Shown: positions 5,301 to 55,919 of the stretch, in pieces | Layout: the number at the start of each line of letters is the position of its first letter | Position numbering within the stretch: position 1 is the stretch's first letter | DNA from: Eledone cirrhosa | Taxonomy: Eukaryota | Direction of reading: 5' to 3' | NCBI GenBank assembly: GCA_964016885.1 | Contig: OZ024742.1 | Coordinates: forward strand, 69,502,001-69,566,000 | DNA: 64,000 bases | Program-made: the position numbers and the translations under genes | The notes under the pieces: model-generated | What the model saw: only the letters and a program-made list of their open reading frames with translations | The model's database searches: none | Told to the model about the DNA's origin: nothing

Positions 5301-8110
5301 AGGCTGTCCACAATTCAAGATAGTCAGCTACACGGACCACAAATTCGTGTTCTGTGTGCTTGACTTAGATAGGCTTCATAGACGAGGACACGGCTACTGG
5401 AAGCTAAACGCGTCCTTACCAGCGCGCAAGGCCTACAGAAACCGGATTAGCGAACTAGTGGTGGTTTGCTCTAAACAGGTGGTGGTTTGCTCTAAAAAGA
5501 GCGATTAGAATAGAATCCATTAGGTTTAGTAAGGCTTTAGCAATAGAGAAAAATAGAGCAGAGGGAGAACTAGTTAGAAAATTAGACGAGGCGCTTAGCA
5601 AAGGCATCGCGACCGACGTACTTGCGGTTAAATTGGCCCTTGACCAATTCTTCAACGAAGGCTGTGTTGTCTGAGCTAGGGTGCGTGCTCTCAGACACGA
5701 GGGGAGGAACGCCGTTCAATGGGCCCGAGTAGCGAAGGCGCGTCGTGGCAACAAAGCCATGATCCGGTCTTTGGTGGACCACGACGGGCGCATGCTACTC
5801 GATCCCGGGCAAATGTGTGAAGCTTTTCAGCGACACTTCGCACAGCTGTTCGGGGGTAGCGGCGGGCCAGATCGAGGGATGGACTTTAGTGTCTACCTCG
5901 ACGGACTGCCGCTGCTCTCGGCTACTGAGGCGGAGTGTTGCGAAAAGCCGATAACAGCCGCTGAAGTACGGGAGGCAATGACTGGCTGCACAAGGGGTAA
6001 ATCGCCTGGTTTGGATGGTCTGCCCTATGAACTTTACGTACAGATGCCAGAATTGTTCGGAGGCCTCATGGCGGACGTATACTGCAACTGTCAACAGAAC
6101 GAGAGAATTCCCAGCTCTGTGAGCCTTGGAGTGGTGGCGCTGCTGAGAAAGGATCCGAACAAGGGGGATAACATAGATAATTTCAGACCCATAGCTCTGC
6201 TAAACAGTGTTCAAGATTTTCGCCAAGGTGCTAGCAAAAAGGTTGGCGCTTGTCGTTGGTGCTCTGGTGGGAGAGGCGCAGACATGCGCCATTCCCGACA
6301 GATCCATCCACGACAACCTCCACCTCATGCGATACATCGGAGAGAGGGTAGCTAAGGAACCTGGCACGGGTGGGTCCTTGATCAATTTAGATCAGTCGAA
6401 AGCTTTCGATAGGGTCGACCATCGTTACCTAGAGGCAGCCCTGAGGGCGGCTGGCTTTGGCCCCGACTTCAGAGGCTGGATCGCTGCCATGCACAGCGAC
6501 ATCTGCTCTGTGGTGAGAGTGAACGGTCACCTTTCGGAACCGTTCAACATCATGCGCTCGGTCCGCCAAGGATGTCCCTTCTCGTCCCTCTTGTACGTAT
6601 GAGTCTCGAGCGATTACTGCACAAACTGAAGACGTTGAGGGGAGTCCCACGCAAACTAGGATGTGGAAGATCCGTGTCAGCATATGCGGACGATGTCACC
6701 GTAGTGGTGTCGAACGCCAAACACATCGAGGCGATCGGCACTACACTAAGAGAATACGAAGCGGTGATAGGGGCAATGATCAACCAGGAAAAGTCAGTGG
6801 GCCTGCAGCTCGGCACCTGGAGAGGCAGGTCCATGCCGTCCAACAACGTCGTCGGGCGCTGGACGGACGGACCGGTTAAATTGCTAGGGGTCTGGTTCGG
6901 TCCGGACCTCCAGATGGACAAAAACTGGGACGAGGTGACGAGCAGGGTGGCTTCTCTCACCCAGAAATGGGCCGAGAGGAAGCTATCCCTGAAAGGTCGA
7001 GCGGAAGTGGCTAACGCGTACATCGCGTCCGTCATCTACTGCCGCCTGACCGTCGTACCTTGTCCTAAGCCCCGCCTGACTACGCTGGAGCGTTTGCTCT
7101 TTAGCTTTTGTTAAAGGGACGCGCTCCGATGGTCAGGCGGTCCATCTGCTGTCAACACCCGCTACGTGGAGGGCTGGGCATGCCGTGGCTGATGATCCGC
7201 AGACACGCGCTCAGGCTACGTCATCTCCACCTCTTCCTCGACGGTGATCAGGTGTGGTCGCCGTTTGCTAGACACTTCTTTCCAAGCTCGTCTCTTTGAC
7301 GGAGCTGCAGTCCTGGGTCAAGCGAAGACCTAGAGGGAGCGCTTGGAGACTGAAATGTTTTCAGGCGCTCACAGCCCTCGACCAATCGGGCAATGTGATC
7401 GGTGGAAACTCCACCTTGGCGTTCTATAGAGGATTAGTGGAGGGGAAGGGCGACGACGTACTTGGAGAAACTCTAGGCGTCGACGAAAATCAACTAGCCA
7501 ATCTCTTCGGAAGGACTTTCGGGCCGGGGCCTATGGAAAACTTTCAGAAATCCCTGGCCTGGCAATGCTACCGAGGAACTTTGCCAGTTCGGGATAAACT
7601 CTACAGGCATGGAGGTGCCGTCAGCCGGGCATGTCCGAGATGCGCACAGGGCGACGAAACCGTCCTGCACACACTCGTCCAGTGTCCGAGCATTGCTGAC
7701 TTGTGGGTTTATGTCGAACACCTGCTGTCACATGTAGGACGGATCCAGCTATCAGCTGAGTCCATCGTGAGGATTTCCCCGCCCTCCTCCTTTAGCCGGG
7801 AAGGGCAGGCAGAGTTTATCTGTCTGGTGGCCATGGCGAAAGAGATAGTATACACGTTTGAAAGGGCTGAAGACGAGCACTTACCTCTTCGGTGATGCAC
7901 TGATTAACTTTTTCAAATTTCATTTGAAAAGGAAAATCAGGGTAGAGAGGGAAGTGCTCTCTTCCCAGCATTTTGTTGAAAGATGGGTGAGAGAAGCAAG
8001 TATGGCCCGAGTGAATGGGCCTACTCTGAGTATGTGTCTGTAAATTAAAGGTGGAAAACTGGGAGAGGGCACTTGGCCTGGTGGTCAGGGTCACTGTAGC
8101 CTTTTAATGG
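2395..8110 (+). mobile_element. Tx1/L1-clade LINE, near full length, frameshifted (ORF1 ~2870-4270, ORF2 4660-8043)
   Basis: APE endonuclease (SINARGL, VAISETR, YWKLN), RT (SPGLDGLP, FRPIALLN, KAFDRVDH, VRQGCP, AYADD), C-terminal CPRC..ETVLHTLVQC; multiple stops and frameshifts. Confidence 0.9.
4270..4345 (+). mobile_element. tRNA-SINE 3' fragment inserted in the Tx1 element
   Basis: ggggtcgataaaataaagtaccagtaatgcactggg..gtagaaacaatt, shared with the other SINE copies. Confidence 0.75.
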
Positions 8111-11054: not shown

Positions 11055-11254
11055 NNNNNNNNNNNNNNNNNNNNNNNNNNNNNNNNNNNNNNNNNNNNNN
11101 NNNNNNNNNNNNNNNNNNNNNNNNNNNNNNNNNNNNNNNNNNNNNNNNNNNNNNNNNNNNNNNNNNNNNNNNNNNNNNNNNNNNNNNNNNNNNNNNNNNN
11201 NNNNNNNNNNNNNNNNNNNNNNNNNNNNNNNNNNNNNNNNNNNNNNNNNNNNNN
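11055..11254. other. Assembly gap (200 N)
   Basis: Run of N preceded by a 10-bp tandem repeat. Confidence 1.
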
Positions 11255-20679: not shown

Positions 20680-21573
20680 AGCAAATTGTATACTGATACC
20701 ATTGTAGAAAATGACGGTTGCGAATAATATTACGGCTATTGTTGTCAACAATTCAATAGATTTTACATACAAGTCCACATCCTTCTGAAATATGACGTAA
20801 ATCAGTATGCAGGCTTTAATGAATGTAAATAAAAACCAGATGACTAAAAAACTGGAGAAATGTTTGTTAACTTGATCCAGTAGCTCCATTATCTTTTCGT
20901 ATTTCTTCTGCAGATGAATCAGTCTGATATTAATGTCACTTGCTTGTCGTTTGACATCTAGCATCTTCAGTTGCTGGGTGAGAACCTGCAACTCTGAACG
21001 TATTATTTTCAGGAAGATATAAAGTAACAACATGCTGCACAATATTCTAGAGAAACAAAGCCACATGAATAACAGAGAGTTTAGGATTTCAACATCTTCA
21101 TTCCTCCATATTGATGTTGCGAGTAATAATTTCATAATAGTTTCGGTGTATTCACTTTTAAGAGTCACTGTGATAGCAATTGCACTCAACATTATAATGA
21201 AAGACGAAAAGATAATTAAACATTTAACGGCTCGTTTTAATTTCCTGAAATAATCTTGGTCCACCAGAAAAACGTAAGTTATGAATTTGTCTATCAATTT
21301 TCTGCAAAACATAGTGTTGATGTGTTGCATAACACATTCAACAGTGAACAAGAAATATAAAATTAAGATGGATAGCTGGATTATACCGTTCCCTCTTCTA
21401 AATTGTATGTCTGTAATAATACATATCCGTACTAGATTTATAAGCCCAAACAGTAAGACAAGGGCTTCGTAAACTTTAAAGAAATTGTTTTGGCGTCTGG
21501 TGAGATATCCTGATGGATATAATCCATGTCCGCTGAGTGCCGAGAAATGTAATAAAGGTTTGATTGTCTCCAT
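20680..21573 (-). CDS. Gustatory-receptor-like (GRL / 7TM chemosensory ion channel) paralog 1, large coding exon (N-terminus to TM6, 298 codons)
   Basis: Uninterrupted ORF with six hydrophobic segments; N-terminal KPLL..SG helix, LINLVR in TM1, ELQVLTQQLK after TM4, LQKKYEKIMELLDQVNKHFSSF before TM5; ends GCT|GTATGT (phase-0 donor). Confidence 0.82.
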
Positions 21574-21618
21574 GATAATTTTTTTATTTGAATGTTGTGA
21601 ACAATGCTAATGGAGGAA

Positions 21619-21645
21619 CTGCAACCAAGAAAATTAACGCTAGAG
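21619..21645 (-). promoter_or_regulatory. Putative 3' splice acceptor upstream of GRL1 ATG (equivalents at 28161 and 34837)
   Basis: gttaattttcttggttgcag| in copy 1 and gttaactttgttgaattcag| in copies 2 and 3, at the homologous position. Confidence 0.45.
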
Positions 21646-22589
21646 ATGATAGAGGAAGTAAGATGTTGCCTTAGTATTCATTGATTCGGGGCCTTGCAAG
21701 AATGCTGCACTGGTGCTTATTTGAAAAGTTTGTTAATTACTTTTCTATTTCTTTTGACTGATATCAAGTCTATAGGTCTAAATGTTGTTAGGACAATTCT
21801 CCTTAGAGTGGTTATAGTGTTTGTGGATATAGCGGAAGTGCAAGTGTCGATAAAGATATAGAAGTGGTGATGCCGTTATGAATTGTGTTTGTTATGGATT
21901 TTTTGTTGGAGTGGTGACAGATGTTAGGGTGATATCTGTGGAGGTTGTAGTAACTGTAGTGGTATTGGCTCCCAGATTTGTGATGTCTATGGATCTAGTG
22001 GTTTCATTCGTGATTTTGGCTAGATAGTCGCTAATGTTTGTAGTTGTGACATTGACTACAATAGTGCACTTAACTGTAGTAGAGATGATGACTGTAGTGG
22101 TGGAGAGCATACATTCAAATATTGTTCAGTGCTGATGAAGAAATGATGTGGAAATGTGGGCATATGCTTATTGTGTTATGAATCTTTAAATCTTTGAATA
22201 GATATTATTAAAATTCAATTATCATGAATAACTGTCGATAGACGTGAAAGTCTCATATTATTATCTTCAGTCTCTACATATGCCTCCCTTTTCCTGAACA
22301 ATAATTTCTTACTCACTGACTCTTCTATAAATATAAATTATTTCGGTTCATTTAACAGATCAACTGTATTGATCTATCGTAGATTATCGTAAATAACAAA
22401 CGGACATCACAGTTAAGACATTTAATTAATCCTGAAACTTATACCTATAAAAAATATTTCCTATATAATTAACTTCATGGTCGTTTCAATGTCTTTCGTT
22501 GTTTCTCCTGTCCCTCACCTCTTTGTCATTGTTATTTTCTAATCTGTTCTGCGTGTCTGTGTGTTTGACATGGTTCTTTCCCCTGTCAT

Positions 22590-22857
22590 TATTATTGATC
22601 CTAGTTTCTCTACGTCAATGATTCACCGTAGTTAAGTGTTGACACGAACAGCGAATTGTGGATAGTGAGTTTCACTTTTACGCCTACCTTCATTCTTTTG
22701 GCTACTGAATGGTGAAGCTGGCGCATTACTATACTAGCTATTGCAATTCGTGCACTTAATTCATCCTCCTGCATTCCATCACTCGTGAACACGGCCCTGA
22801 GATACTTGAATATCTCTACCTGCTTCAGTGGAACTCCATTCACATGTAGAGTGCACA
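22590..22857 (-). mobile_element. RTE-like RT 3' fragment (duplicate at ~29155-29421)
   Basis: LKQVEIFKYLRAVFTSDG..ELSARIAIAS..LNYGES. Confidence 0.7.
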
Positions 22858-23673
<816 letters not shown>

Positions 23674-24069
23674 AGGGTTTGTGTGTGTGTGTGTGTGTTT
23701 ATAAAATATATATAGTACATGTATATATATATATATAGAGAAAAAAACGCCAGATAAAAATGATGGAGGGATATGTCATTATAGAAATACATACAAACAT
23801 ACGTACATACATACATAGGAGACTGTGATAGGAAAACTCCAAGATAATAAAACACTAGGAAGAGACATGATTGTCGGCTACTGGTACACAAAATTGAAAT
23901 TCTATCGGAGGTATCTTACCGACCTCTACCGACATTAGCACAAACAATACTGGTCCCCAAGAAAAAAGACACCCATTTGGCAAAAGAATACCGACTCATT
24001 GCATGCCAGAACCTGATGTGTAAGATGTATACAGCCTGCCTGAATGTATTCCTCCAAGACCACTGTGAA

Positions 24070-24257
24070 AATAATTGTTTCTACTTTTGGCACAAGGCCA
24101 GCAATTACCCAGTGCATTACTGGCACTTTATTTTATCGACCCCGTAAAGATGAAAGGCAAAGTTAACCTCGGTGGGATTTGAACTCAGAATGGCAAGGGC
24201 CGTAACTCTATACGTCAAAGCATGGCGTCCAACCCTCTACCGATACTGTCAATCCAC
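24070..24257 (-). mobile_element. Full-length tRNA-SINE with aataat target-site duplication (duplicate at ~30746-30933)
   Basis: Reverse complement of the SINE at 61157-61345; flanked by aataat on both sides. Confidence 0.85.
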
Positions 24258-24759
24258 AATAATAACATCATTACAGATGAAGAAGGAGCTGGAAAGAAAG
24301 GGGTTTGGGTGTCTGCTGAACAACTCCTAATTAACAAAACTGCGAACTTGTAATATGGCTACAGTCTGGCTGGACTACAGGAGAGATTTCGATCCCCCCC
24401 TCTTGGATGATAGAGGCCCTCCGACTTGCTAAAGTACCAGACATTATTATCAGAGCCATAGAGGCATTGTCTTCTTCTTGGCCTACTATCCTAAAGTTAA
24501 AAACAGAGAAGGAGGACTCTATTTTCACTGATAAAATAGAATATCACAGAGGTATATTTCAAGGAGACAGTCTCTTTGTGATACTATTTATCCTGTCATT
24601 AAACCCCTTGTCCTTTCTGCTCAAGAAATGTGAAGGATACATCATTGGCTCACAGGAGCACAGAAATACGAACTTAACCCATAATTTATTTGTGGATGAT
24701 CTGAAACTCTATGCCAAGAACATAAATTGGATGAAGAAAAATCTTGACCTGGTTACAAC

Positions 24760-26140
24760 CGCTCTCAGTAAGAAAGAGGGCAATGTCTTCCGGAGGCTGG
24801 CTGCCAGGTGGTCTGCAAGTCCGTAACATACGAACTGGGTGAGGAGTTTAGTCCGGTGCAACTGGGTGTCGGCATGTCCGGTGGCTGTGAGGGGGCCGCT
24901 CATGCAACCAGGCAGTTCTTCAACAGCTGCCCATCGGAACCGGCATCCAGGGACTCCACGCACCTCATTGTCAAGCTTGACATGAGGAATGCCTTCAACT
25001 CTTTACGCCGGGATCATCTGCTCGAGGCATGCCTCAGTCGAGCCCCCTCTGCCTACCCGCTGGCCTACCTGTCTTATGGAGCCCCGAACATGCTCCTTGC
25101 TGCTGATACGGTCATACCCTCGGCTACTGGGGTCCAACAGGGTGACCCTTTGGGACCCCTCCTGTTCGCCCTGGGTATTGACCACATCGCCCGGAGTATC
25201 ACAGCCCGTTTCAACGTTTGGTATCTGGATGATGCTACGTTGGGCGGGCCCGTACGGACGGTCTGCCATGACATTCAATCGGTGGTTCCTACCCTGGCGG
25301 GAATCGGCCTCCAGGTCAACTCGGCCAAGTCGGAGGTGGTGAATGTCAGCCTCGATGCTGCGAGATTTGCAGCCTCCGTCTTGGCTGTGCGGTCCATTCT
25401 CCGTCAGGTTCAGGTAAACCCCAAAAAGTATGTCCTCATCCTCGGATCACCGATCCAACCACCCGCCATCCGCTCCACCATCAGGTCCAAGCTTCAACAG
25501 CGCCAGACTCTCACGAGGTGACTGGGCTTGATTGATGGCCACCCAACTCTCTTTCTGCTGAGGTACTGCTTCGCCATCCCGAAGCTCCTACATACACACC
25601 GCAGCGCTCCGTGCTACACCCAGACATCTATCCTCGCTGACCTCGATACATGTATCCGAGCAGCAGCCGAGGAGATATGGAACGTCAAGTTTGACGACAT
25701 AGGGTGGCAACAGGCCACTTTATCTGTCAGGTATGGCGGCTTTGACTCCGGTCCCCGATCTCACTAGCTTTGCCGGCGTATCTTTCGTCAGTAACCTCGT
25801 GCCGCGTCCTCGTCAGCAGGGTTCTTCAAATCACAACAGAACCCTTTGTGTTCAGAGAACGTGAGGCCGGCTGTGAGACGGGGGAGCGGCTGGGATTTAG
25901 ATCAGTAGACGTCCTTTCTTCTTCTCCCCCTGCTGACGTCAAGTCGCCCCAATGCACTTGGGCTGCCATCCAGTGCAGCCTTGCCTCAGACAGGCTCACG
26001 CGCCAGCTCGACCAGCAACGCCTTGCTTGTTTTCGTGCAGCCTCTAAACCCCACAGTGGTGCCTGGCTACATGCCTTGCCCTCCTTCTCCACTGGCACGC
26101 AGCTAGACAACCATAGCCTGCGCATCGGCGTTTCGCAGTA
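24760..26140 (+). mobile_element. CRE-clade non-LTR retrotransposon RT fragment
   Basis: QLGVGMSGGCEGAAHATR, KLDMRNAFNSLRRD, GVQQGDPLGPLLFALG, WYLDD, SGAWLHALP; GC-rich relative to flanks. Confidence 0.88.
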
Positions 26141-27205
26141 AATCCATGGATGAAAAACTGCATGCTAATCAGCAAAAAATCATACATGGATATGTTGCCA
26201 GGAAGCTCCAGCGTGAGAGTAATGTAGATAAACAAAGTAGTCTATCTTGGACCAACAATCTCTATATTGGCTCCCATTTGAAGAATACGCTTTTGCAATC
26301 CAAGAACAGGAAATCAACACGAAACACCTGATAAACAAAGATGTGACAACAAGTGCAGACTTTGCAGAATTAACATCGAAGATGTCACCCATGTCATAAG
26401 CAGCTGTCCAAAGATGTCATCGCGGTACTATCTACCTATGAGGCATGATGTAGTGGCCAAAACGCTGAACAATGTAATCCGTAGAAAAGATAGCACCGAT
26501 AATAAACACATTAAATATTGCAGCAATGTGGAAGACATACATATACGTAATATGAAAGAGTACTGGTGGAATGTTCCAGTAAAAAACCCCAATAAAATGC
26601 AGGCATAACAGACCAGATATAATGATATGCGACAGGGAAAAGAAGGCATGCACAGTAGTGGAAGTTAGCTGCCCAGCAGATGCCAATATTATATCAAAGA
26701 TTAGCGAACAGGAGAATATTTATGCAGAACTAATGATAAATCTGCTGATACTCCACCCTTACATATACCTTCAGATTTATGCCGGTGATTATTGAGGCAC
26801 TGGGATATGTTAGTAACTGCCCCAATACAAGTCTTGAGAAGCTGGGCTTCACAGGAACAGAAAGAACACAACTAGTTAGGAAATTACAAGTACAATCCAC
26901 AGTAAAAATGGAACAGTAAAAATATGTAAGACATTCCAAAAATTTTGCATCAAATAACTGCATATACACATGTACAGATACAAAGCATATACACATGCAC
27001 ACATACAACTCAAAACATACACATCCACACATACAATAACATCCATATCTATACATGCATGCATAATCTACCTAGTTGATGTGTAAATTCCAGTGATAGA
27101 GTCTTGTGTCTATGTTAGAAACCGACTCTCTCTCTATTGGGAAAAGATTTGTGAAATTATAAAACCAGAAGAACATAAGCATAAATGTAAAATAGAGTAA
27201 CATAC

Positions 27206-28102
27206 GGCAAATTGTATACTGATACCATGGTAGAAAAAGTTGGTTGTTAACAATAGCTTGCTTATTGTTGAAGACGCTAAAATACTTTTTTCATAAAAGT
27301 CCACATCTTTCTGAAATATGATGTAGATCAGTATACAGGTACTGCTGAGTGTACATAACAATGTGATGACTACAAAACTGGAGAAATGTTTGTTGAATTG
27401 ATCCAGTAGCTCCATTATCTCTTCGTATTTCTTCTGTAGATGAATCAGTTTGCTGATAAAGTTAGTTGCTTGTTGTTTGACATCTAGCAGCTTCAGTTGT
27501 TGGGTGAGTACATGTAACTCTGAACATATTATTTTCAGGAAGAAATAAAGTAACATCTCGACGCTGAATATTCTAAGCATAGCAACGCAGGTGTATAACA
27601 GAAAGTTTAGGATTTCAATAGCTTCATTCCTCCATATTGGTACTCTTAATAATATTTTCTTCGCCATACTTGTGGGGTGTTCACTTTTAAGAGTCACTGT
27701 GGCACCAATTAGAACCAACATATTTATGAAAAACGCAAACAAAGTTACACCTTTAACGGCTCGTTTTAATTTCCTGAAATAATCTTGCTCCAGCAGAAAA
27801 ACGTAAGCGATGTACTTGTCTATCAATTTTCCAGCAAACATAGTGTTGATGTGTTGTATAACACATTCACCAGTGTACAATAGATACAAGAGCATGAAGG
27901 ATAGCTGGAGAATAACTTTCCCTGTGCTTAATTGCATGTCTATCAAATAAAATAGCCGTACTAGATTTATAAGCCAAACCAGTAAGACAATAGCTCTGTA
28001 AATTTTAAAGAAATTCTCTTGACGTCTGGTGAGATATCCTGATGGATATATCTCATGACCGCTGAGTGCCATGAGATGTAGTAAAGGTTTCATTGTCTCC
28101 AT
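27206..28102 (-). CDS. GRL paralog 2, large coding exon (N-terminus to TM6, 299 codons)
   Basis: Intact ORF, roughly two-thirds identical to paralog 1 by eye; ends GCC|GTATGT at the same position. Confidence 0.82.
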
Positions 28103-30072
28103 CAGAATTTTTTTATTTGAATTTTTTGTCGATCACCAGTGGTCAATGTTAGTGGAGAAACTGAATTCAACAAAGTTAACGCTAGAGATGGAGTAAGATA
28201 TAGAGAGGAAGTAAGATCTTGCCTTCGAGAATAAGTATTCATTGATTCGGGGCCAAGCAAAAATACTACACTTGGGTTAATATTTTGGAAATTTTGTTGA
28301 TTACTTTCCTCTTTCTCTTGACTGATATCAAGTTAATAGGTCTAAATGTTGTTAGGATAATTCTGCTTAGAGTGGTTATAATGTTTGTTGATATAGCGGA
28401 AGTGCAAATGTCTATAAAGATATAGAAGTGATGATGCAGTTATGAATTGTGTTTGTTATGGATATTTTGCTGGAGTGGTGACAGATATTAGGGTGATATC
28501 TGTGGAGGTTGTAGTAACTGTAGTGGTATTGGCTCCCAGGTTTGTGATGTCTGTGGATCTAGTGGTTTCATTCGTGATTTTGGCTAGATAGTCGCTAATG
28601 TTTGTAGTTGTGACATTGACTACAATAGTGCACTTAACTGTAGTAGAGATGATGACTGTAGTGGTGGAGAGCATACATTCAAATATTGTTCAGTGCTGAT
28701 GAAGAAATGATGTGGAAATGTGGGCATATGCTTATTGTGTTATGAATCTTTAAATCTTTGAATAGATATTATTAAAATTCAATTATCATGAATAACTGTC
28801 GATAGACGTGAAAGTCTCATATTATTATCTTCAGTCTCTACATATGCCTCCCTTTTCCTGAACAATAATTTCTTACTCACTGACTCTTCTATAAATATAA
28901 ATTATTTCGGTTCATTTAACAGATCAACTGTATTGATCTATCGTAGATTATCGTAAATAACAAACGGACATCACAGTTAAGACATTTAATTAATCCTGAA
29001 ACTTATACCTATGAAAAATATTTCCTATATAATTAGCTTCATGGTCGTTTCAATGTCTTTCGTTGTTTCTCCTGTCCCTCACCTCTTTGTCATTGTTATT
29101 TTCTAATCTGTTCTGTGTGTCTATGTGTATGACATAGTTCTTTCCCCTGTCATTATTATTGATCCTAGTTTCTCTACGTCAATGATTCACCGTAGTTAAG
29201 TGTTGACACGAACAGCGAATTGTGGATAGTGAGTTTCACTTTTACGCCTACCTTCATTCTTTTGGCTACTGAATGGTGAAGCTGGCGCATTACTATACTA
29301 GCTATTGCAATTCGTGCACTTAATTCATCCTCCTGCATTCCATCACTCGTGAACACGGCCCTGAGATACTTGAATATATCTACCTGCTTCAGTGGAACTC
29401 CATTCACATGTAGAGTGCACAGGGATCTTAGCTGAGAACGACTTCCTGATGACGAAATGGCTTCTCCATGCTCTCCATTTGGAAACCATGTTTATTCCCT
29501 TTCAGAAACTAATTAGTTGGAGTGAAGTTTTAGTAAATAAGTTAATTTTTATAATTTTCTTATTTTACGACTTTCATATAAATGTCCTGCATCCCCTTGC
29601 ATTGAACCACAAAGTTACGAAGACAAAACCTATATATTTACTAGCATAGGTATGCATCTGTGTATATATGTTGGTAGATCTACTAATTCCTTATAATTAT
29701 ATCCAAATTATTTTGTTGAGCAAAAATTTGCCAAAACTGCTACTATAGTTCATAGTAAAAGCTTGGCTACTGTCTTTTTAAAACCCCACTCCTCACTGAT
29801 TAACCTCGATGTCACGTGATTGATTCTTTTTTCAATGTCTTGGAATTTAGTCCACGCTTGCTTTTTTCCATCCACTGAATTATTTTTGTATAAGTTCCCT
29901 GTGTCCACGCATCGCCTGGGATCTTAGCTAGGAACGACTTCCTGATGAAGAAATAGCTTCTCCATGCTTCTCCATTCGGAAACCATGTTTATTCCCTTTC
30001 AGAAATTAATTAGTTGGAGTGAAATTTTAGTAAGTAAGTTAATTTTTATAATTTTCTTATTTTACGTCTTTC

Positions 30073-30373
<301 letters not shown>

Positions 30374-30491
30374 TTTATAAAATATATATAGTACATGTAT
30401 ATATATATAGAGAGAGAAAAAAACGCCAGATAAAAATGATGGAGGGATATGTCATTATAGAAATACATACAAACATACGTACATACATACA

Positions 30492-33400
30492 TAGGAGACT
30501 GTGATAGGAAAACTCCAAGATAATAAAACACTAGGAAGAGACATGATTGTCGGCTACTGGTACACAAAATTGAAATTCTATCGGAGGTATCTTACCGACC
30601 TCTACCGACATTAACACAAACAATACTGGTCCCCAAGAAAAAAGACACCCATTTGGCAAAAGAATACCGACTCATTGCATGCCAGAACCTGATGTGTAAG
30701 ATGTATACAGCCTGCCTGAATGTATTCCTCCAAGACCACTGTGAAAATAATTGTTTCTACTTTTGGCACAAGGCCAGCAATTACCCAGTGCATTACTGGC
30801 ACTTTATTTTATCGACCCCGTAAAGATGAAAGGCAAAGTTAACCTCGGTGGGATTTGAACTCAGAATGGCAAGGGCCGTAACTCTATACGTCAAAGCATG
30901 GCGTCCAACCCTCTACCGATACTGTCAATCCACAATAATAACATCATTACAGATGAAGAAGGAGCTGGAAAGAAAGGGGTTTGGGTGTCTGCTGAACAAC
31001 TCCTAATTAACAAAACTGCGAACTTGTAATATGGCTACAGTCTGGCTGGACTACAGGAGAGATTTCGATCCCCCCTCTTGGATGATAGAGGCCCTCCGAC
31101 TTACTAAAGTTCCAGACATTATTATCAGAGCCATAGAGGCATTGTCTTGTTCTTGGCCTACTATCCTAAAGTTAAAAACAGAGAAGGAGGACTCTATTTT
31201 CACTGATAAAATAGAATATCACAGAGGTATATTTCAAGGAGATAGTCTCTCTGTGATACTATTTATCCTGTCATTAAACCCCTTGTCCTTTCTGCTCAAG
31301 AAATGTGAAGGATACATCATTGGCTCACAGGAGCACAGAAATACGAACTTAACCCATAATTTATTTGTGGATGATCTGAAACTCTATGCCAAGAACATAA
31401 ATTGGATGAAGAAAAATCTTGACCTGGTTACAACAGCTCTCAGTAAGAAAGAGGGCAATGTCTTCCGGAGGCTGGCTGCCAGGTGATCTGCAAGTCCGTA
31501 ACATACGAACTGGGTGAGGAGTTTAGTCCGGTGCAACTGGGTGTCGGCATGTCCGGTGGCTGTGAGGGGGCCGCTCATGCAACCAGGCAGTTCTTCAACA
31601 GCTGCCCATCGGAACCGGCATCCAGGGACTCCACGCACCTCATTGTCAAGCTTGACATGAGGAATGCCTTCAACTCTTTACGCCGGGATCATCTGCTCGA
31701 GGCATGCCTTAGTCGAGCCCCCTCTGCCTACCCGCTGGCCTACCTGTCTTATGGAGCCCCGAACATGCTCCTTGCTGCTGATACGGTCATACCCTCGGCT
31801 ACTGGGGTCCAACAGGGTGACCCTTTGGGACCCCTCCTGTTCGCCCTGGGTATTGACCACATCGCCCGGAGTATCACAGCCCGTTTCAACGTTTGGTATC
31901 TGGATGATGCTACGTTGGGCGGGCCCGTACGGACGGTCTGCCATGACATTCAATCGGTGGTTCCTACCCTGGCGGGAATCGGCCTCCAGGTCAACTCGGC
32001 CAAGTCGGAGGTGGTGAATGTCAGCCTCGATGCTGCGAGATTTGCAGCCTCCGTCTTGGCTGTGCGGTCCATTCTCCGTCAGGTTCAGGTAAACCCCAAA
32101 AAGTATGTCCTCATCCTCGGATCACCGATCCAACCACCCGCCATCCGCTCCACCATCAGGTCCAAGCTTCAACAGCGCCAGACTCTCACGAGGTGACTGG
32201 GCTTGATTGACGGCCACCCAGCTCTCTTTCTGCTGAGGTACTGCTTCGCCATCCCGAAGCTCCTACATACACACCGCAGCGCTCCGTGCTACACCCAGAC
32301 ATCTATCCTCGCTGACCTCGATACATGTATCCGAGCAGCAGCCGAGGAGATATGAAACGTCAAGTTTGACGACATAGGGTGGCAACAGGCCACTTTATCT
32401 GTCAGGTATGGCGGCTTTGACTCCGGTCCCCGATCTCACTAGCTTTGCCGGCGTATCTTTCGTCAGTAACCTCGTGCCGCGTCCTCGTCAGCAGGGTTCT
32501 TCAAATCACAACAGAACCCTTTGTGTTCAGAGAACGTGAGGCCGGCTGTGAGACGTGGGAGCGGCTGGGATTTAGATCAGTAGACGTCCTTCCTTCTTCT
32601 CCCCCTGCTGACGTCAAGTCGCCCCAATGCACTTGGGCTGCCATCCAGTGCAGCCTTGCCTCAGACAGGCTCACGCGCCAGCTCGACCAGCACCGCCTTG
32701 CTTGTTTTCGTGCAGCCTCTAAACCCCACAGTGGTGCCTGGCTACATGCCTTGCCCTCCTTCTCCACTGGCACGCAGCTAGACAACCATAGCCTGCGCAT
32801 CGGCGTTTCGCAGTAAATCCATGGATGAAAAACTGCATGCTAATCAGCAAAAAATCATACATGGATATGTTGCCAGGAAGCTCCAGCGTGAGAGTAATGT
32901 AGATAAAAAAAGTAGTCTATCTTGGACCAACAATCTCTATATTGGCTCCCATTTGAAGAATACGCTTTTGCAATCCAAGAACAGGAAATCAACACGAAAC
33001 ACCTGATAAACAAAGATGTGACAACAAGTGCAGACTTTGCAGAATTAACATCGAAGATGTCACCCATGTCATAAGCAGCTGTCCAAAGATGTCATCGCGG
33101 TACTATCTACCTATGAGGCATGATGTAGTGGCCAAAACGCTGAGCAATGTAATCCGTAGAAAAGATAGCACCGATAATAAACACATTAAATATTGCAGCA
33201 ATGTGGAAGACATACATATACGTAATATGAAAGAGTACTGGTGGAATGTTCCAGTAAAAAACCCCAATAAAATGCAGGCATAACAGACCAGATATAATGA
33301 TATGCGACAGGGAAAAGAAGGCATGCACAGTAGTGGAAGTTAGCTGTCCAGCAGATGCCAATATTATATCAAAGATTAGCGAACAGGAGAATATTTATGC

Positions 33401-33675
33401 AGAACTAATGATAAATCTGCTGATACTCCACCCTTACATATACCTTCAGATTTATGCCGGTGATTATTGAGGCACTGGGATATGTTAGTAACTGCCTCAA
33501 TACAAGTCTTGAGAAGCTGGGCTTCACAGGAACAGAAAGAACACAACTAGTTAGGAAATTACAAGTACAATCCACAGTAAAAATGGAACAGTAAAAATAT
33601 GTAAGACATTCCAAAAATTTTGCATCAAATAACTGCATATACACATGTACAGATACAAAGCATATACACATGCAC
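30492..33675 (+). mobile_element. Duplicate R4-like LINE with nested SINE and CRE fragment (31435-32815)
   Basis: Near-identical to 23816-27000. Confidence 0.85.
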
Positions 33676-33880
33676 ACATACAACTCAAAACATACACATC
33701 CACACATACAATAACATCCATATCTATACATGCATGCATAATCTACCTAGTTGATGTGTAAATTCCAGTGATAGAGTCTTGTGTCTATGTTAGAAACCGA
33801 CTCTCTCTCTATTGGGAAAAGATTTGTGAAATTATAAAACCAGAAGAACATAAGCATAAATGTAAAATAGAGTAACATAC

Positions 33881-34777
33881 GGCAAATTGTATACTGATAC
33901 CATGGTAGAAAAAGTTGGTTGTTAACAATAGCATGCTTATTGTTGAAGACGCTAAAATACTTTTTTCATAAAAGTCCACATCTTTCTGAAATATGATGTA
34001 GATCAGTATACAGGTACTGCTGAATGTACATAACAACGTGATGACTACAAAACTGGAGAAATGTTTGTTGACTTGATCCAGTAGCTCCATTATCTCTTCG
34101 TATTTCTTCTGTAGATGAATCAGTTTGCTGATAAAGTTAGTTGCTTGTTGTTTGACATCTAGCAGCTTCAGTTGTTGGGTGAGTACATGTAACTCTGAAC
34201 ATATTATTTTCAGGAAGAAATAAAGTAACATCTCGACGCTGAATATTCTAAGCATAGCAACGCAGGTGTATAACAGAAAGTTTAGGATTTCAATAGCTTC
34301 ATTCCTCCATATTGGTACTCTTAATAATATTTTCTTCGCCATACTTGTGGGGTGTTCACTTTTAAGAGTCACTGTGGCACCAATTAGAACCAACATATTT
34401 ATGAAAAACGCAAACAAAGTTACACCTTTAACGGCTCGTTTTAATTTCCTGAAATAATCTTGCTCCAGCAGAAAAACGTAAGCGATGTACTTGTCTATCA
34501 ATTTTCCAGCAAACATAGTGTTGATGTGTTGTATAACACATTCACCAGTGTACAATAGATACAAGAGCATGAAGGATAGCTGGAGAATAACTTTCCCTGT
34601 GCTTAATTGCATGTCTATCAAATAAAATAGCCGTACTAGATTTATAAGCCAAACCAGTAAGACAATAGCTCTGTAAATTTTAAAGAAATTCTCTTGACGT
34701 CTGGTGAGATATCCTGATGGATATATCTCATGACCGCTGAGTGCCATGAGATGTAGTAAAGGTTTCATTGTCTCCAT
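33881..34777 (-). CDS. GRL paralog 3, large coding exon (299 codons)
   Basis: Differs from paralog 2 at three residues (QFN/QVN, TLS/TFS, SKL/SML); same GTATGT donor. Confidence 0.82.
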
Positions 34778-36429
34778 CAGAATTCTTTTATTTGAATTTT
34801 TTTGTCGATCACCAGTGGACAATGTTAGTGGAGAAACTGAATTCAACAAAGTTAACGATAGAGATGGAGTAAGATGTAGAGAGGAAGTAAGATCTTGCCT
34901 TCGAGAATAAGTATTCATTGATTCGGGGCCAAGCAAAAATGCTACACTTGGGTTAATATTTTGGAAATTTTGTTGATTACTTTCCTCTTTCTCTTGACTG
35001 ATATCAAGTTAATAGGTCTAAATGTTGTTAGGATAATTCTGCTTAGAGTGGTTATAATGTCTGTTGATATAGCGGAAGTGCAAATGTCTATAAAGATATA
35101 GAAGTGATGATGCAGTTATGAATTGTGTTTGTTATGGATATTTTGCTGGAGTGGTGACAGATATTAGGGTGATATCTGTGGAGGTTGTAGTAACTGTAGT
35201 GGTATTGGCTCCCAGGTTTGTGATGTCTGTGGATATAGTGGTTTCATTCGTGATTTTGGCTAGATAGTCGCTAGTGACTGTTGTGGGGACATTGATTTCA
35301 GTGATGGACTTAACTGTAGTAGAGCTGATGTCTGTAATGGTGGACAGCATACAGTAATATATTTTTCTGTAGCGGTGATGATGTGCAAATGTGGAAAAGG
35401 ATTTGCTTATTGTGTTTTGAATCTTGAAATCTTGGAATACATACTATTTAGATTCAATCATCACAGATAACTGTCGATAGACGTGAAAGTTTCATATTAT
35501 TATCTTCATTCTGTTCATATGCCTCCCTTTGCCTAAACAATAATTCCTTATTCACTGACTCTGCTATGAATATAAATTATTTCAGATAATTATACCATCA
35601 ATTATATTGATCTATCGTAGATGATGGTGATTAAGAAACGGACATCACAATTAAGACATCTAATTAATCCTTGAAATATATAAAATAGAGTCTATATTAT
35701 TATTGAGGTAATTGATAGGGTAAATCTCTTGGTATTGTTTCACAAAACTGAAGTAGAATAAAAACGTTATGATTTATTGTCTGGGAATTATTTATATATT
35801 TTGTTTTTCGTAAGTTAGAAAGTCATTGCAGCAATCAATACACAACTCCTCAGCAAACACCCTAAACCGAACGTTAACCTAGTACTCATGACTCTTACGA
35901 CATCAAACGCGTACACCAAAACTCAGCTTTCATTACCGCATCGTAACAGCCACCAAATGTGGAAGACATTTTATCAAGCTCAAGCTGGCATATTAGGTAA
36001 TTTCTATATAATAAAGCCAAGATATTATCACCTGTAACTTTTATTATCAAGACTAACAAAGACAAACAAACATTTATGCAAAATCGTGTCAGTATTAGGT
36101 GTTGGGAAAGAAAAGAATATCTCATCGTTTTAGAAGTTAGTCGTTCATCAGGAAAGAATAAAGTTACGAGAAAGAAAAATCTGAACGATTGAAGTAAAAA
36201 CAAGGGAGACTATGAGAATTTATGCGATGGAGAGGTAAGTGAAGTTTATGTTGTACGGCATGCCTAGGGGTGCAGACGGCTTATTAGCCCGGCCTTTGAC
36301 GTACATATACATCCGCATTTCAAGTAAGAGTTCTAACTCCTGTTGGATTGCTTCTCGGCAGGATGTGATGAATTTGTCCTGACAACCAGTCTGAAAAAGA
36401 CAATGGGGATGTAACAGCGTGCACACCGA

Positions 36430-42849: not shown

Positions 42850-44395
42850 GGGGAGGTTGATTGGGATTTGGGCCAAGGACGCGGCAGTAATGGAGCTGCG
42901 CCACGCGGACAGGACCGCAAAAGCGTTCCCGAAGACAATAGCCAGGGACACCCGCTGCAAACGCAACTCCACCTCTCGGGGCTCCTTCCTCAGACGGGTC
43001 ACCGACGTTCTGAACTTGCTGAGGAGCTCGGCAGTACGAGGTCTAAGTTCACCTGAGGACTCACGGTGACCGGTGCGAAGAGGAAACGGCCGGACAATCC
43101 CCGGTATTTGTTTATCTTCCTTTCCTTTGCATAGCGAGTCTTATTACCGGGGTTTGTGTTCGAAGTGACTAAGTTGGAGGTGGAGAACGTATCATATGTG
43201 ACGTCTCAGATGAGAAATCTACCTCTTTCGAATAGGAAGAGGTTGATTCTATCGGGGCGCTTGCCATCTCCGCAGTCAAGGCCTGCTGGCTCCAGTTGTG
43301 ATGGGAAGCCAGCTGCGTCCACGCTCCTCTCAATATGTCGTTCAGAGCTGCCTGTCGGGGTAACCTGCCTGCACTCTGGCAGCAAGACAGTAGGTGCAGA
43401 CAGAACTTGTCAGCGACAGCCCAGCAACAGCATTTATGGGGTTCACACACGCCGACGCCGAGGCGTTGAGCCACTCCAATGCGAGTACACTTGTCATCAG
43501 AGGAGTACCGGTTTTTTTGAGCCACGATCCGTTGTTTGGCTGTGAAGCGGAGCCGAGGCATGCGAGGCGGTATTGATCCAAGCCAGACTCGATCCAACTG
43601 AAAGAAGATCTACATTTGATGTCCCAGTTGCGTTGGACATTTGTATACTGAGGGACAGAGAGGCCTTCGCCTGTCCAGTCGGTCACAGCCTGTTCAAGCT
43701 TTGGGTCACGTCAAGTTCGGCTATCTGGTTGAGAAACTCACTGACGAAAGTGCGATTGGAGGATATCGAGGAGAGGTAGGTAACGAGGGGGTAAATGGAT
43801 GTGTCTCGTATGAAACACGTCTCTAGGGCGTGATCTCATCTAACGCTGTTTAAGACGTTTGTCATGTCCAGCTTCACAAGGAGGTGGAGTGACGAAGGAG
43901 GCACGTGCTCTATGAAATGCCTGGCCGCATGAGCTGCGGCTCATATCCGCACTTGATTACAACTCCAAGCTAGACAGGGCTTAGCAACTCGACTTTCTCA
44001 TGTCGCATTTAACTGACTTGTAAGCTAACTTGGCTGTAAGTCGTCGGAATGTTGAACGCCACCGTCATTCTTTCTCAGGGCGGTGAGACTGGCTGAGAAG
44101 AAATGATCGTGGGCATGGCTGGGCAAGTTGGCACGGAGGAGATAGTTGGTGAGGACTGTTAACGACTGGAGAAATCGGGTCCCTGTTTCTGCAGCGTGAG
44201 ACGAGATGAAGTCTCTGACTGGGGCACAAGCCGTCAACTCCGCCATTGCTGCTACCTGGAGAAGATATTAGGGCTGCTATGACGTCCTCACTGGATACTG
44301 CCGGGGAAGGATTGCTGGCAGGGTCTTGAACATCGCTGATGTCAGCTGGGGTTCCTGATGTTTTAGGCGAAGCGCTGATAAGACATCCGGCTTTG
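42850..44395 (-). mobile_element. CRE-clade element, decayed
   Basis: FFSASLTALRKNDGGV, KLDMTN, HLLSCCQSAGRLPRQAALNDILR motifs. Confidence 0.75.
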
Positions 44396-49576: not shown

Positions 49577-49755
49577 AAATGTTTTTTTATTAAAAAAAGA
49601 AAAAAAGAAAAAAAAGAAGAAAAAAAGAAGAAAAAAAGAAGAAAAAAAAGAAGAAAAAGAAAAAAAGAAGAAAAAAGAAAAAAAAAGAAAGAAAAGAAAA
49701 AAAAGAAAAAAAAGAAAAAAGAGATTTCCTACACAGGTGAAAGTATACGGTAAGG

Positions 49756-49953
49756 AAGTCAAAATTCAAAAGTGCAACTGGAGTCTTTTTATGAATATTT
49801 ATTTATTTATTTCCTTTACCGGTTTCACAGTTCTTATTCTTATTCACACCACAAACCGGTCATCTCAATTTTACTTTTGAAAAGCATAAGAACTGTTAGA
49901 CCGGTAAAGGAAATAAATATTCATAAAAAGACTCCAGTTGCATTTTCGACTTC
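49756..49953. repeat. Imperfect inverted repeat (~70-bp arms)
   Basis: tgcaactggagtctttttatgaatattt..tcctttaccggt / accggtaaaggaaataaatattcataaaaagactccagttgca. Confidence 0.85.
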
Positions 49954-50107
49954 ATTTCCTTATATATATGTATATATATTTATTATATATGGTTGCGTTT
50001 GTGTGTGTGTGTGTGTGTGTGCGTATAGATACATATTATATGTGTGTGTATGTGTATGTATGTGTGTATATATATATGTATGGGCATATATATATATATA
50101 AGTATAT

Positions 50108-50235
50108 AAGTTTTAATATAGATGAGATTCTACAGGACTAGAACTGTTTCATTCTTTAGAAATCATCAGGAATCTGATGATTTCTAAAGAATGAAACAGT
50201 TCTAGTCCTGTAGAATCTCATCTATATTAAAACTT
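50108..50235. repeat. Perfect palindrome, 62-bp arms, 4-nt spacer
   Basis: 50108-50169 is the reverse complement of 50174-50235. Confidence 0.92.
50125..50175 (-). ncRNA. Type I hammerhead ribozyme
   Basis: AGATTC-CTGATGA-TTTCTAAAGAAT-GAAA-CAGTTCTAGTCCTG-TA-GAATCT: 6-bp stem I, 4-bp stem III, GUA triplet. Confidence 0.8.
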
Positions 50236-50733
50236 TTATACTCTGCAATGTATTGAGTACCTTACTTACTGTGGTTACCTCCGATTCAACCCGGAATAAC
50301 GTACTATATAAGTATATATATATATGAGTGTGTGTGTGTGTGTGTGTATACGTATGTCTACTTTTTTCTTTTTTCTTTTATAATATTTTTTATCTATATT
50401 ATATTTCTCTTTTTTTTATTTATCAGCTATTTTTTTTTATAGTTATGTGCTGGAGTGGTTTGATGATATACCTCTGCAGTTGGACAACATACATTTTCCA
50501 TGCATCTCCGTCTATAACATCACGGCATCGTTTTAAATGTAGACAAATTCTATGACTGGGCTGTTGAGCTGTTTGGTGAGACGTGTAATGAGATATTTAC
50601 AGATAAATAACAGATTTTGATAAGTCTTACTAAGTGGAGGAAACGTTTGTAAATCGATATTCAATATAAAAACGTATTTGTTAATTACTATATATATATA
50701 TTAGTTATGTAATAAACAACATAACATAATTAT

Positions 50734-50792
50734 TTCATATACCAGTGGTTTCAAGGCAGATATTTATATCTGTCTTCATTCGTCAGAATGAA
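50734..50792 (-). ncRNA. Hammerhead ribozyme variant
   Basis: TTCATT-CTGACGA-atg-AAGACAGATAT..ATATCTGCCTT-GAAA-CCACTGG-TA-TATGAA. Confidence 0.6.
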
Positions 50793-50875
50793 TAAAAAAA
50801 AATAATAAAAAATCTAATAAGCTCTGCAGCCTACATAGAGCACTCTCTTTTCGTGTACCTTTCCTACGGAAATAC

Positions 50876-50941
<66 letters not shown>

Positions 50942-51046
50942 GTATTTCCGTAGGAAAGGTACAGGAAAAGAGAGTGCTCTATGTAGGCTGCAGAGCTTAT
51001 TAGATTTTTTATTATTTTTTTTTTATTCATTCTGACGAATGAAGAC
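50772..51046. repeat. Palindrome with ~108-bp arms centred on (TA)n
   Basis: Arms are near-perfect reverse complements; ORF track shows mirror ORFs on both strands. Confidence 0.92.
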
Positions 51047-51114
51047 TGAAATATATATTGCAGTAATAAACGAAGCTAAATTTTAAACATTTGACTTTTT
51101 ATTTAACTTTATTT

Positions 51115-51186
<72 letters not shown>

Positions 51187-51256
51187 AAATAAAGTTAAAT
51201 AAAAAGTCAAATGTTTAAAATTTAGCTTCGTTTATTACTGCAATATATATTTCAGT
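51045..51256. repeat. Second abutting palindrome with ~72-bp arms centred on (TA)n
   Basis: actgaaatatatattgcagtaataaacgaagc.. / ..gcttcgtttattactgcaatatatatttcagt. Confidence 0.92.
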
Positions 51257-51291: not shown

Positions 51292-51569
51292 CCGAATTAG
51301 TGTGGTATAGACAAGTACATATGTTGTTGAGGTGTATAATTTTGTCAATACTCTGATATGTCCAGTTCCTGGTTGGGTGAAACAGTACTGTACATACATA
51401 CACGTGGAATTTATATTGTGGCAGTTTCAATTAATGAAATTGTGAGTTTTCATATCTTAAGCTGTTGAAACAATAATTCCTCTATGATTTCATAGCTAAG
51501 CCTTGTGGCTCAGCTGGGAAATGCCTTTCATTGGATCCTTGGCGGCTTGAACGAACGGTCAGCTGATGT

Positions 51570-52250
51570 AATCTAAGCACTGCCCGCAACGCAACTCGTA
51601 CTGGCGAGAACGAACGATCGCCGCAAATACAATTGAAGCAATGCCAGCAGCGCCACACGTAGTGGCAAGAATAAGCGTTCGCCACCAATGCAATCAAACA
51701 AATACCCACAAACCTACGCGTAGCTGCGACACGAATGGTCACCGCCAATGCAAGTGCAGCTCTTCCCACAACGCTACGCGTAGCTGCGAGAATTTACTGT
51801 CACCACGTATGCAAGTGAAGCACTGACTGCAGCTCGACGCGTAGCGGCTGGAACTTAGGATCGCCGCCAATGCAAGCGATGAGCTCTCTGCAGCTCGACG
51901 CGTAGCGGCTGGAACTTAGGATCGCCGCCAATGCAAGCGATGAGCTCTCTGCAGCTCGACGCGTAGCGGCTGGAACTTAGGATCGCCGCCAATGCAAGCG
52001 ATGAGCTCTCTGCAGCTCGACGCGTAGCGGCTGGAACTTAGGATCGCCGCCAATGCAAGCGATGAGCTCTCTGCAGCACTACGCGTAGCGGCTGGAACTT
52101 AGGATCGCCGCCAATGCAAGCGATGAGCTCTCTGCAGCTCGACGCGTAGCGGCTGGAACTTAGGATCGCCGCCAATGCAAGCGATGAGCTCTCTGCAGCA
52201 CTACGCGTAGCGATGAGAACGAACGGTCACCGCCGATGCAAGCGAAGCAC
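51570..52250. repeat. GC-rich 61-bp minisatellite: ~6 near-identical units (51827-52212) plus diverged flanking units
   Basis: (ctgcagctcgacgcgtagcggctggaacttaggatcgccgccaatgcaagcgatgagctct)n. Confidence 0.92.
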
Positions 52251-55610: not shown

Positions 55611-55919
55611 ATTCCCAGTCCTCTTCGCTATATTGCTATCTTTTGATCTGGTAGCGGCTCGTTTTTCCATTCTTTCGTCTGCATTTTGTTCTATGGAGTC
55701 TAAGACGTGTGTATTACGTGGCTGTGTATTTTTCTCTTTCTTTTTTCCTTTCCTTTTCCTTTGTATATATTATATTTGTTAGTGTTTTCGTTCTGTATCC
55801 ATTATATTAAATGAGTTTTAAAAAAAGAGTTAATAAATAAATAGAGAGTTAATAAATAAATAAAACGTTATACTTGTTTTACCCTCCCATCTCCAATTAA
55901 ACCGAACGCTATCATGACT

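Follow-up and report, generated by a model that had tools for sequence, protein, structure and literature searches.

The closest described systems are found in insects. The Drosophila gene Gr39a combines four large exons, each coding for six transmembrane (TM) helices, with three small shared exons (PMC2204066), and in Blattella germanica 26 Gr genes are alternatively spliced, one of which (Gr60a-m) has 13 isoforms (PMC6175461). Three phase-0 introns have been described as ancestral across gustatory receptor-like (GRL) genes (PMC6175461). In insect gustatory receptors (GRs), the pocket is lined by helices S2-S6, S7a joins the anchor domain, and S7b, which carries the motif TYhhhhhQF, lines the pore (PMC12635824). 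In this study, a stretch of 64,000 nucleotides from Eledone cirrhosa (C3:69502001-69566000, where C3 denotes contig OZ024742.1; hereafter the window) was analyzed within the 3.0-Gb genome, all of which was covered by the search for tail exons. The window contains three large exons, A, B, and C, which very probably belong to the large-exon array of one GRL gene with a shared three-exon tail, to which they would be spliced, probably as alternative first exons. At the level of genomic sequence, the variable/constant-exon interpretation proposed in the initial annotation of the window was supported.

The frames read confirmed three open exons of 298-299 codons, as originally described, each ending in GISIQFA followed by a phase-0 GTATGT donor. 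The donor was preceded by GCT in exon A (at 20680) and by GCC in exon C. The exons and the duplication that carries two of them are located in the window as follows.

20680..21573, minus strand: variable large exon A, 298 codons from ATG to phase-0 donor, predicted to encode S0-S6 of a GRL channel subunit
27206..28102, minus strand: variable large exon B, stop-free ATG-to-donor frame of 299 codons
33881..34777, minus strand: variable large exon C, stop-free ATG-to-donor frame of 299 codons
23509..35682, no strand: tandem duplication of 6.7 kb in which B and C lie, 5.5 kb of it at 97.8%

All three exons scored above the cut-off of 26.6 bits for the Pfam family PF08395 (7tm_7), with 47.1, 33.8, and 34.9 bits. 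The three frames are intact, but B and C are 99% identical copies of the recent 6.7-kb tandem duplication, and the window thus holds two distinct exon types rather than the three receptor exons counted initially. The amino-acid identity of A and C was 64.5%, and that of A to B/C overall 64-65%. Exon B likely arose by unequal crossover, because its upstream DNA is of the A type (4.9% mismatch, compared with 12.2% for A versus C). One nested set of retroelement fragments, as judged by eye, was duplicated together with exons B and C.

The best homologue, isoform X1 of LOC106874590 from Octopus bimaculoides, extends 94 residues beyond the donor position. When the genome was searched with this O. 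bimaculoides tail, 11 matches were obtained, nine of which formed three sets of three small exons (E2, E3, and E4) near the window; the remaining two, on C25 and C26, were weak (E 2.7 and 7.6). A DNA search of the genome with E3 returned exactly three places. Moreover, word-7 blastn over the 464 kb examined around the locus (C3 69.442-69.906 Mb) recovered three full-length copies of each of E2, E3, and E4. The set nearest to A, B, and C, tail set 1, lies 45-46 kb before the window start. It is listed here with a further large exon that is also located beyond the window start.

C3:69456730-801, minus strand: tail 1 E2, 72 nt, phase 0, canonical AG/GT
C3:69456405-491, minus strand: tail 1 E3, 87 nt, phase 0, canonical AG/GT
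C3:69455593-694, minus strand: tail 1 E4, 33 codons plus stop, phase 0, carrying SYGVIVFQ
C3:69461208-69462107, minus strand: fourth intact variable exon of arm 1, beyond the window start

The initial annotation had expected one shared pore exon beyond the window. Its position was anticipated correctly, as the homology search for the C-terminus in the sequence flanking the window start found intact E2-E4 there, but the tail consists of three small exons, not one. The absence of an intact terminal exon from the window was also borne out, since the true tail exons match no more than 11-12 nt there (E >= 0.29), and no tail set occurs in the gap-free stretch between C, B, and A. The crippled terminal-exon remnant, reported earlier without coordinates, was undetectable in the window with the real tail exons. 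The best look-alikes, at 33110-33394 and 26435-26719 (minus strand), run antisense to a fragment resembling a retroelement (zf-RVT E 0.049, under the cut-off), and a weak large-exon match at 43747-43860 (E 1.7) lies, as judged by eye, inside retroelement-like sequence. Fragments of reverse-transcriptase retroelements, whose translations were judged by eye, occur at window positions 24335-26605, 31007-33280, and 5224-7892, among others. Tandem minisatellite arrays are present at 51549-52245 and 55833-57353, and short palindromic repeats around 49751-51256.

The C3 region consists of three inverted arms that are approximately 93-99% identical in long blocks. Arm 1 (minus) reads C, B, A, gap, fragment, broken exon, intact exon, and tail 1; arm 2 (plus) reads truncated exon, two intact exons, gap, fragment, broken exon, intact exon, and tail 2; and arm 3 (minus), which is gap-free, reads broken exon, two intact exons, and tail 3. 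Four, three, and two intact large exons thus lie upstream of the tails on matching strands, that is, nine large exons to three tails, and the donor (GTATGT or GTACGT) is kept in all nine. The array is triplicated as inverted repeats over C3:69.455-69.88 Mb, head-to-head at about 69.57 Mb and tail-to-tail at about 69.73 Mb. Regarding a possible haplotype-duplication artefact, the arm centres are gap-free and exon A is 93% identical to its mirror copy; even if the arms were such an artefact, the architecture holds inside single arms. An orphan large exon truncated at its 5' end (L012, C3:69065554-69066360, plus strand) has 278 open codons and lies approximately 390 kb from the cluster; no tail is known in its vicinity, the DNA of which was not retrieved.

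A second, larger array was first seen as a cluster in the PF08395 search, in which 111 of 215 candidates were scored, and further GRL loci or C13-type exons may lie beyond it. The 400 kb scanned on C13 contained four broken large exons as well as 12 intact ones, which share 84-100% identity with the query. All lie on the plus strand, and all 12 intact exons end in TCG followed by GTAAGT. Since a homologue search with a C13 exon returned none of 3132 candidates at E <= 1, the C13 tail was located by a scan for splice sites and motif. The tail exons are accordingly predictions from splice sites, length, and motif, and the resemblance of this tail to that of a Sepia protein, as judged by eye, supports them. 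Each was found once in the 400 kb, and no assembly gap lies between the large exons and the single tail.

C13:13020164-13305326, plus strand: second, larger GRL array (L017-L022, L025, L033, L097-L125), approximately 260 kb
C13:13282184: predicted tail E2
C13:13302335: predicted tail E3
C13:13305276: predicted tail E4 with TYILVVIQ
C13:12971787-12978348, 12994193-12999938, and 13366583-13389076: three conventional GRL-like genes with one large exon and one tail, flanking the array

The three flanking genes served as a positive control, because the scan detected private tails where they are present: all three have their own E2 and E3 within 1-22 kb, and an E4 was detected for one of them. They match the profile built from the exons (one is a member of the profile) but not Pfam, for which they are too divergent. 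Just past some C13 donors, at C13:13128021-13128136 and 13162842-13162925, an older, divergent exon is represented by its 3' end, including another GTAAGT donor, which may be a relic of exons being replaced through recombination. The genome holds one more copy of the C13 E3 (L144, C3:362901795-362901921), which sits inside a 2.1-kb duplicated block and is a broken orphan with a stop codon and a lost donor.

The closest database relatives of the window exons are Octopus proteins, with exon C being 43% identical to O. bimaculoides X1; a search with the tail alone gave seven proteins among 13 candidates. Isoforms X1-X3 of O. bimaculoides LOC106874590 have identical tails (94/94), while their N-terminal parts share 196/360, 206/366, and 218/358 residues (54-61%). 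In the case of O. sinensis LOC118764548 (X1-X5), the 53 residues of E2 and E3 are identical in 10 of 10 pairs. The point at which the Octopus isoforms switch is the donor position, that is, the exon junction. In a tree, X1 of O. bimaculoides grouped with X1 of O. sinensis (96/100), X2 of O. bimaculoides grouped with X4/X5 of O. sinensis (100/100), and the Eledone exons stood apart from the Octopus isoforms with weak support (71/98). A shared-tail architecture is therefore suggested by nine large exons to three tails on C3, 12 to one on C13, and Octopus isoforms joined at the same junction.

The next-best hits, at 22-27% identity, came from Sepia, Lottia, Patella (limpet), Argopecten (scallop), Haliotis (abalone), and a tardigrade, and several of them are named 'Gustatory receptor'; 10 of the 28 more distant hits were looked up. 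PF08395 also exceeded the gathering cut-off in all three O. bimaculoides isoforms, one of which spans profile positions 2-367 of 370. The S7b signature TYhhhhhQF is present in degenerate form, as SYGVIVFQT in all three C3 tails and TYILVVIQT on C13, with Y and Q in register and the last F replaced by T. Moreover, the intron layout (donor after S6, E2 of 72 nt, E3 of 87 nt, all phase 0 with AG/GT) is the ancestral GRL pattern. A model of Argonauta hians (P0007) fuses a retroelement endonuclease-like part to GRL tail exons, which is probably an annotation error from a missing link to the large exons.

To the fold of exon A, the prediction by AlphaFold2 (AF2) assigned a pLDDT (predicted local distance difference test) of 74. 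In VIA-align, the top eight of 48,161 chains were all insect odorant receptors (OR) or GRs (Z 12.8-18.9, root-mean-square deviation 3.5-5.0, 240-291 aligned), and the next chain had a Z of 6.6. Foldseek also ranked OR/GR first for this model, yet with E >= 0.004. A first AF2 model, of full-length P0001 with a poor alignment, reached a pLDDT of 43 and was excluded from the fold search. In the ESM Atlas, P0001 was nearest to 7tm_7 clusters (0.96), by which nothing was gained over Pfam, and a sequence search against the PDB gave no relevant match. By analogy with the insect receptors, the encoded product would be a tetrameric ligand-gated cation channel with an S2-S6 pocket and with S7 forming the pore and part of the anchor, and the split into variable and constant exons would, by homology, separate the predicted pocket from the pore. 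The putative role is chemosensory.

In the proposed mechanism, each large exon would be transcribed as an alternative first exon, presumably from a separate promoter. Its phase-0 donor would be spliced to the same three downstream small exons, in the case of A, B, and C across 66-79 kb, and the large exons in between would be passed over because they have no acceptor in use. One locus could in this way yield a number of channel subunits that differ in their predicted ligand pockets and have a single predicted pore helix in common. New receptors would arise when one exon is duplicated into the intron, followed by positive selection or decay. Sequencing reads from three runs on the tail and the proximal exon behave as one-sample DNA, with introns covered continuously and no exon-exon joint among the matches listed, and have no bearing on expression.

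The same architecture could also operate with a different 5' arrangement, in which the large exons are mutually exclusive internal exons behind one shared promoter and a non-coding leader, as in Dscam. The acceptor would then be the AG 45-59 nt before the ATG, which the initial annotation had regarded as conserved. The block that holds it is as follows.

34778..35000, minus strand: 5' block upstream of the ATG of C, homologous to the coding N-terminal extension of the Octopus isoforms and holding the AG at 34836

A YAG is indeed present 45, 58, and 59 nt before the ATG and is invariant in all six exon classes; in addition, O. sinensis X4 starts at a Met right after the homologous position. However, 32 of the 176 adjacent ungapped column pairs of the 5' block are equally invariant and the block is homologous to Octopus coding sequence, so the conservation of the AG is not above chance. 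Homology among the exon classes reaches approximately 220 nt above the ATG and matches the N-terminal coding region of the Octopus isoforms. In O. bimaculoides X1-X3 this block belongs to the coding sequence, and several Eledone copies keep it open in frame. Where this homology stops upstream, the DNA is ACN-rich rather than pyrimidine-tract-like, as judged by eye. ACN-rich low-complexity tracts of several hundred bases lie upstream of most C3 large-exon classes (window 21574-22440, 28103-28990, and 34778-35680). Where a paralogous class has its upstream ATG, exons A, B, and C have ATA, and this type seems to start approximately 70 codons later than the Octopus isoforms. Alternative first exons are favoured because every large exon brings an ATG of its own and a coding first exon common to them was not evident at the 5' side. 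Distinct start sites are also used by the Gr28b isoforms (PMC12635824). Accepting the shared tail, the arrangement with internal exons is considered unlikely, and the exons rather resemble alternative first exons, each with a separate start codon.

The connection from A, B, and C to tail 1 must be considered with respect to two assembly gaps.

11055..11254, no strand: assembly gap, entered as 200 N but of unknown true size, separating exon A from the tail
C3:69637208-407: second assembly gap, in the mirrored place of the inverted arm 2

Since arm 2 is gapped at the mirrored place, the paralogue cannot close the gap of arm 1. The 124 kb that separate the two gaps may lie in either orientation; in both, A, B, and C face one tail, with none in between. 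The unknown gap size and the matching gap in the mirrored arm would leave room for a further tail set at 11055, which would make A, B, and C a separate gene, still with three exons on one tail. In contigs of one-sample DNA, however, all seven variant letters listed in E2 and E3 were those of tails 2 and 3 (among the matches listed, with 96 more). Summed depth at the tail (18, 18, and 33) was also close to that of the three-copy proximal exon (20, 23, and 27), a weak hint because depth is not copy number. A hidden tail set is accordingly regarded as quite improbable, and tail set 1 as the probable partner of the three exons.

A further question is whether A, B, C, and the other distal large exons represent partial gene duplicates that are never spliced to a tail, that is, neutral unprocessed pseudogenes. 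Many broken copies are interspersed among the intact ones, the donor-to-tail distance is 66-79 kb, and dN/dS by the Nei-Gojobori method (NG86) was near 1. The last value had been named in the initial annotation as a mark of pseudogenes; numerically, A-type versus B/C-type gave 1.12-1.23, but frame retention and site patterns point to selection. Older classes gave 0.35-0.58, and the 12 C13 exons had a median of 1.57 (66 pairs). In a neutral simulation, A and C both stayed stop-free in just 34 of 20,000 runs. For C13, approximately 14.6 stops were expected and none was seen among the 12 exons, which were chosen as intact, with the four broken ones left out. A and C differ more in the exon (168/894 codon-aligned bases) than upstream (105/858), without a frameshift: over the 858 aligned bases upstream, 13 indels break the frame, and the exon has one in-frame codon gap, counted from the protein alignment since the nucleotide alignment produced spurious small gaps.

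For the five exons of the A/B/C type, codon models fitted with the broken copies left out gave an M0 omega of 1.98 (p 0.001); the C13 exons had a value of 2.07 (p 1.5e-5). M2a was better than M1a in both of these sets and in that of all nine C3 exons. Change was also non-random by region. Variable sites were more frequent in the outer half than in the anchor region, both for A versus C (54/115 versus 14/66, p 0.00075) and for six of the 12 C13 exons (41/108 versus 11/57, p 0.014), and selected sites were distributed likewise (16/115 versus 1/66 and 21/112 versus 2/61). Recent exon copies thus stay open with an omega of about 2 and change mostly in the predicted outer, ligand-facing half, a pattern that fits diversifying selection on the predicted pocket rather than decay. 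In addition, the annotated orthologues join several exons to one tail. The explanation by pseudogenes is therefore considered very improbable. It is scarcely credible that the large exons are translated alone by donor read-through into six-helix proteins without a pore helix, perhaps regulatory subunits. The frames do run on past the donor before a stop, but the extensions vary widely in length and sequence (2 residues in L006-L008, 9 in A, 23 in B/C, and, in L002, approximately 97 residues of low complexity), while all nine intact exons have kept the donor. Moreover, the pore and part of the anchor domain are formed by S7 (PMC12635824).

Several points weigh against alternative first exons on a shared tail. 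Between A, B, and C and their nearest tail there is an assembly gap whose size is unknown, and we infer the splice itself from annotated relatives and insect precedent. The Octopus isoforms are computed annotation models whose read support is not visible, and one of them, O. sinensis X2, seems to be a chimera that matches X1 at 323/369 but differs from it in the back part. Annotated isoform variants usually rest on transcript alignments. At least six broken large exons or fragments occur in the C3 region and four in the C13 region, so that silence is conceivable for some intact copies, e.g., B. The N-terminal extension found in relatives is missing from exon A, which has lost it. With respect to selection, the M0 omega over all nine C3 exons was 0.95, not different from 1 (p 0.65), and the NG86 dN/dS of A versus B/C was just 1.1-1.2. 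The codon models were our own implementation with a fixed tree, recombination among copies can inflate the site test, and the limits of the outer half and the anchor were drawn by hand from predicted helices after the selected sites had been seen.

In the literature searched, largely outside subscription papers, no description of a spliced variable/constant GRL architecture in a mollusc was found, and LOC106874590 was not mentioned. The accessible parts of PMC7067487, PMC11526382, PMC4244043, and PMC11682238 contained nothing on spliced molluscan GRLs. A broader and tentative possibility is that octopods independently evolved a variable/constant-exon chemoreceptor system of at least two GRL arrays, with about 21 intact isoforms on four tails and strong selection on the pocket, which was missed as 'uncharacterized'. 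It might constitute a second repertoire of taste channels in addition to the chemotactile receptors, with promoters chosen among exons in a cell-specific manner and an identical pore/anchor tail that would allow combinatorial tetramers. The ancestral GRL layout consists of one long exon and three short phase-0 exons, and two unlinked, approximately 20%-identical GRL lineages in one cephalopod suggest that this layout repeatedly invites such diversification. Because many receptors collapse into one 'uncharacterized' locus, gene counts would under-report the rapidly diversifying octopod receptor set to which these data point. As the exact junctions are defined, expression, promoter choice, and ligand tuning are now testable.

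Compared with Gr39a, the cephalopod locus shows the same order of several six-TM large exons with GT donors before three small shared exons for TM7 and the C-terminus, and exon gain, loss, and pseudogenization occur in both (PMC2204066). Gr39a differs in being an insect gene with 4-5 exon types under mainly purifying selection (PMC2204066), whereas the cephalopod locus has donor-to-tail distances of 66-79 kb on C3 and up to approximately 260 kb on C13, a whole-gene inverted triplication, and an omega of about 2 among recent copies. Gr60a-m of Blattella likewise splices multiple long first exons into three shared short final exons across three ancestral phase-0 introns, and its up to 13 isoforms are near the 12 intact C13 exons (PMC6175461). 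It is an insect gene with at least part of its splices backed by RNA-seq (PMC6175461), while the Eledone locus is known here from genomic sequence. Gr28b a-e share the feature of a unique exon per isoform and differ in the distinct start sites and functions, e.g., heat sensing, reported for Drosophila (PMC12635824). The nearest likeness within cephalopods is given by Octopus LOC106874590 X1-X3 and LOC118764548 X1-X5, with the same junction and a shared tail under the name 'uncharacterized'. The design is thus known from insects, and the pattern is implicit in the database annotation of two Octopus species; the cephalopod version would have arisen independently of the insect one. Overall, a Gr39a-type locus in a cephalopod, accompanied by a larger second array and evidence of positive selection, is well supported.

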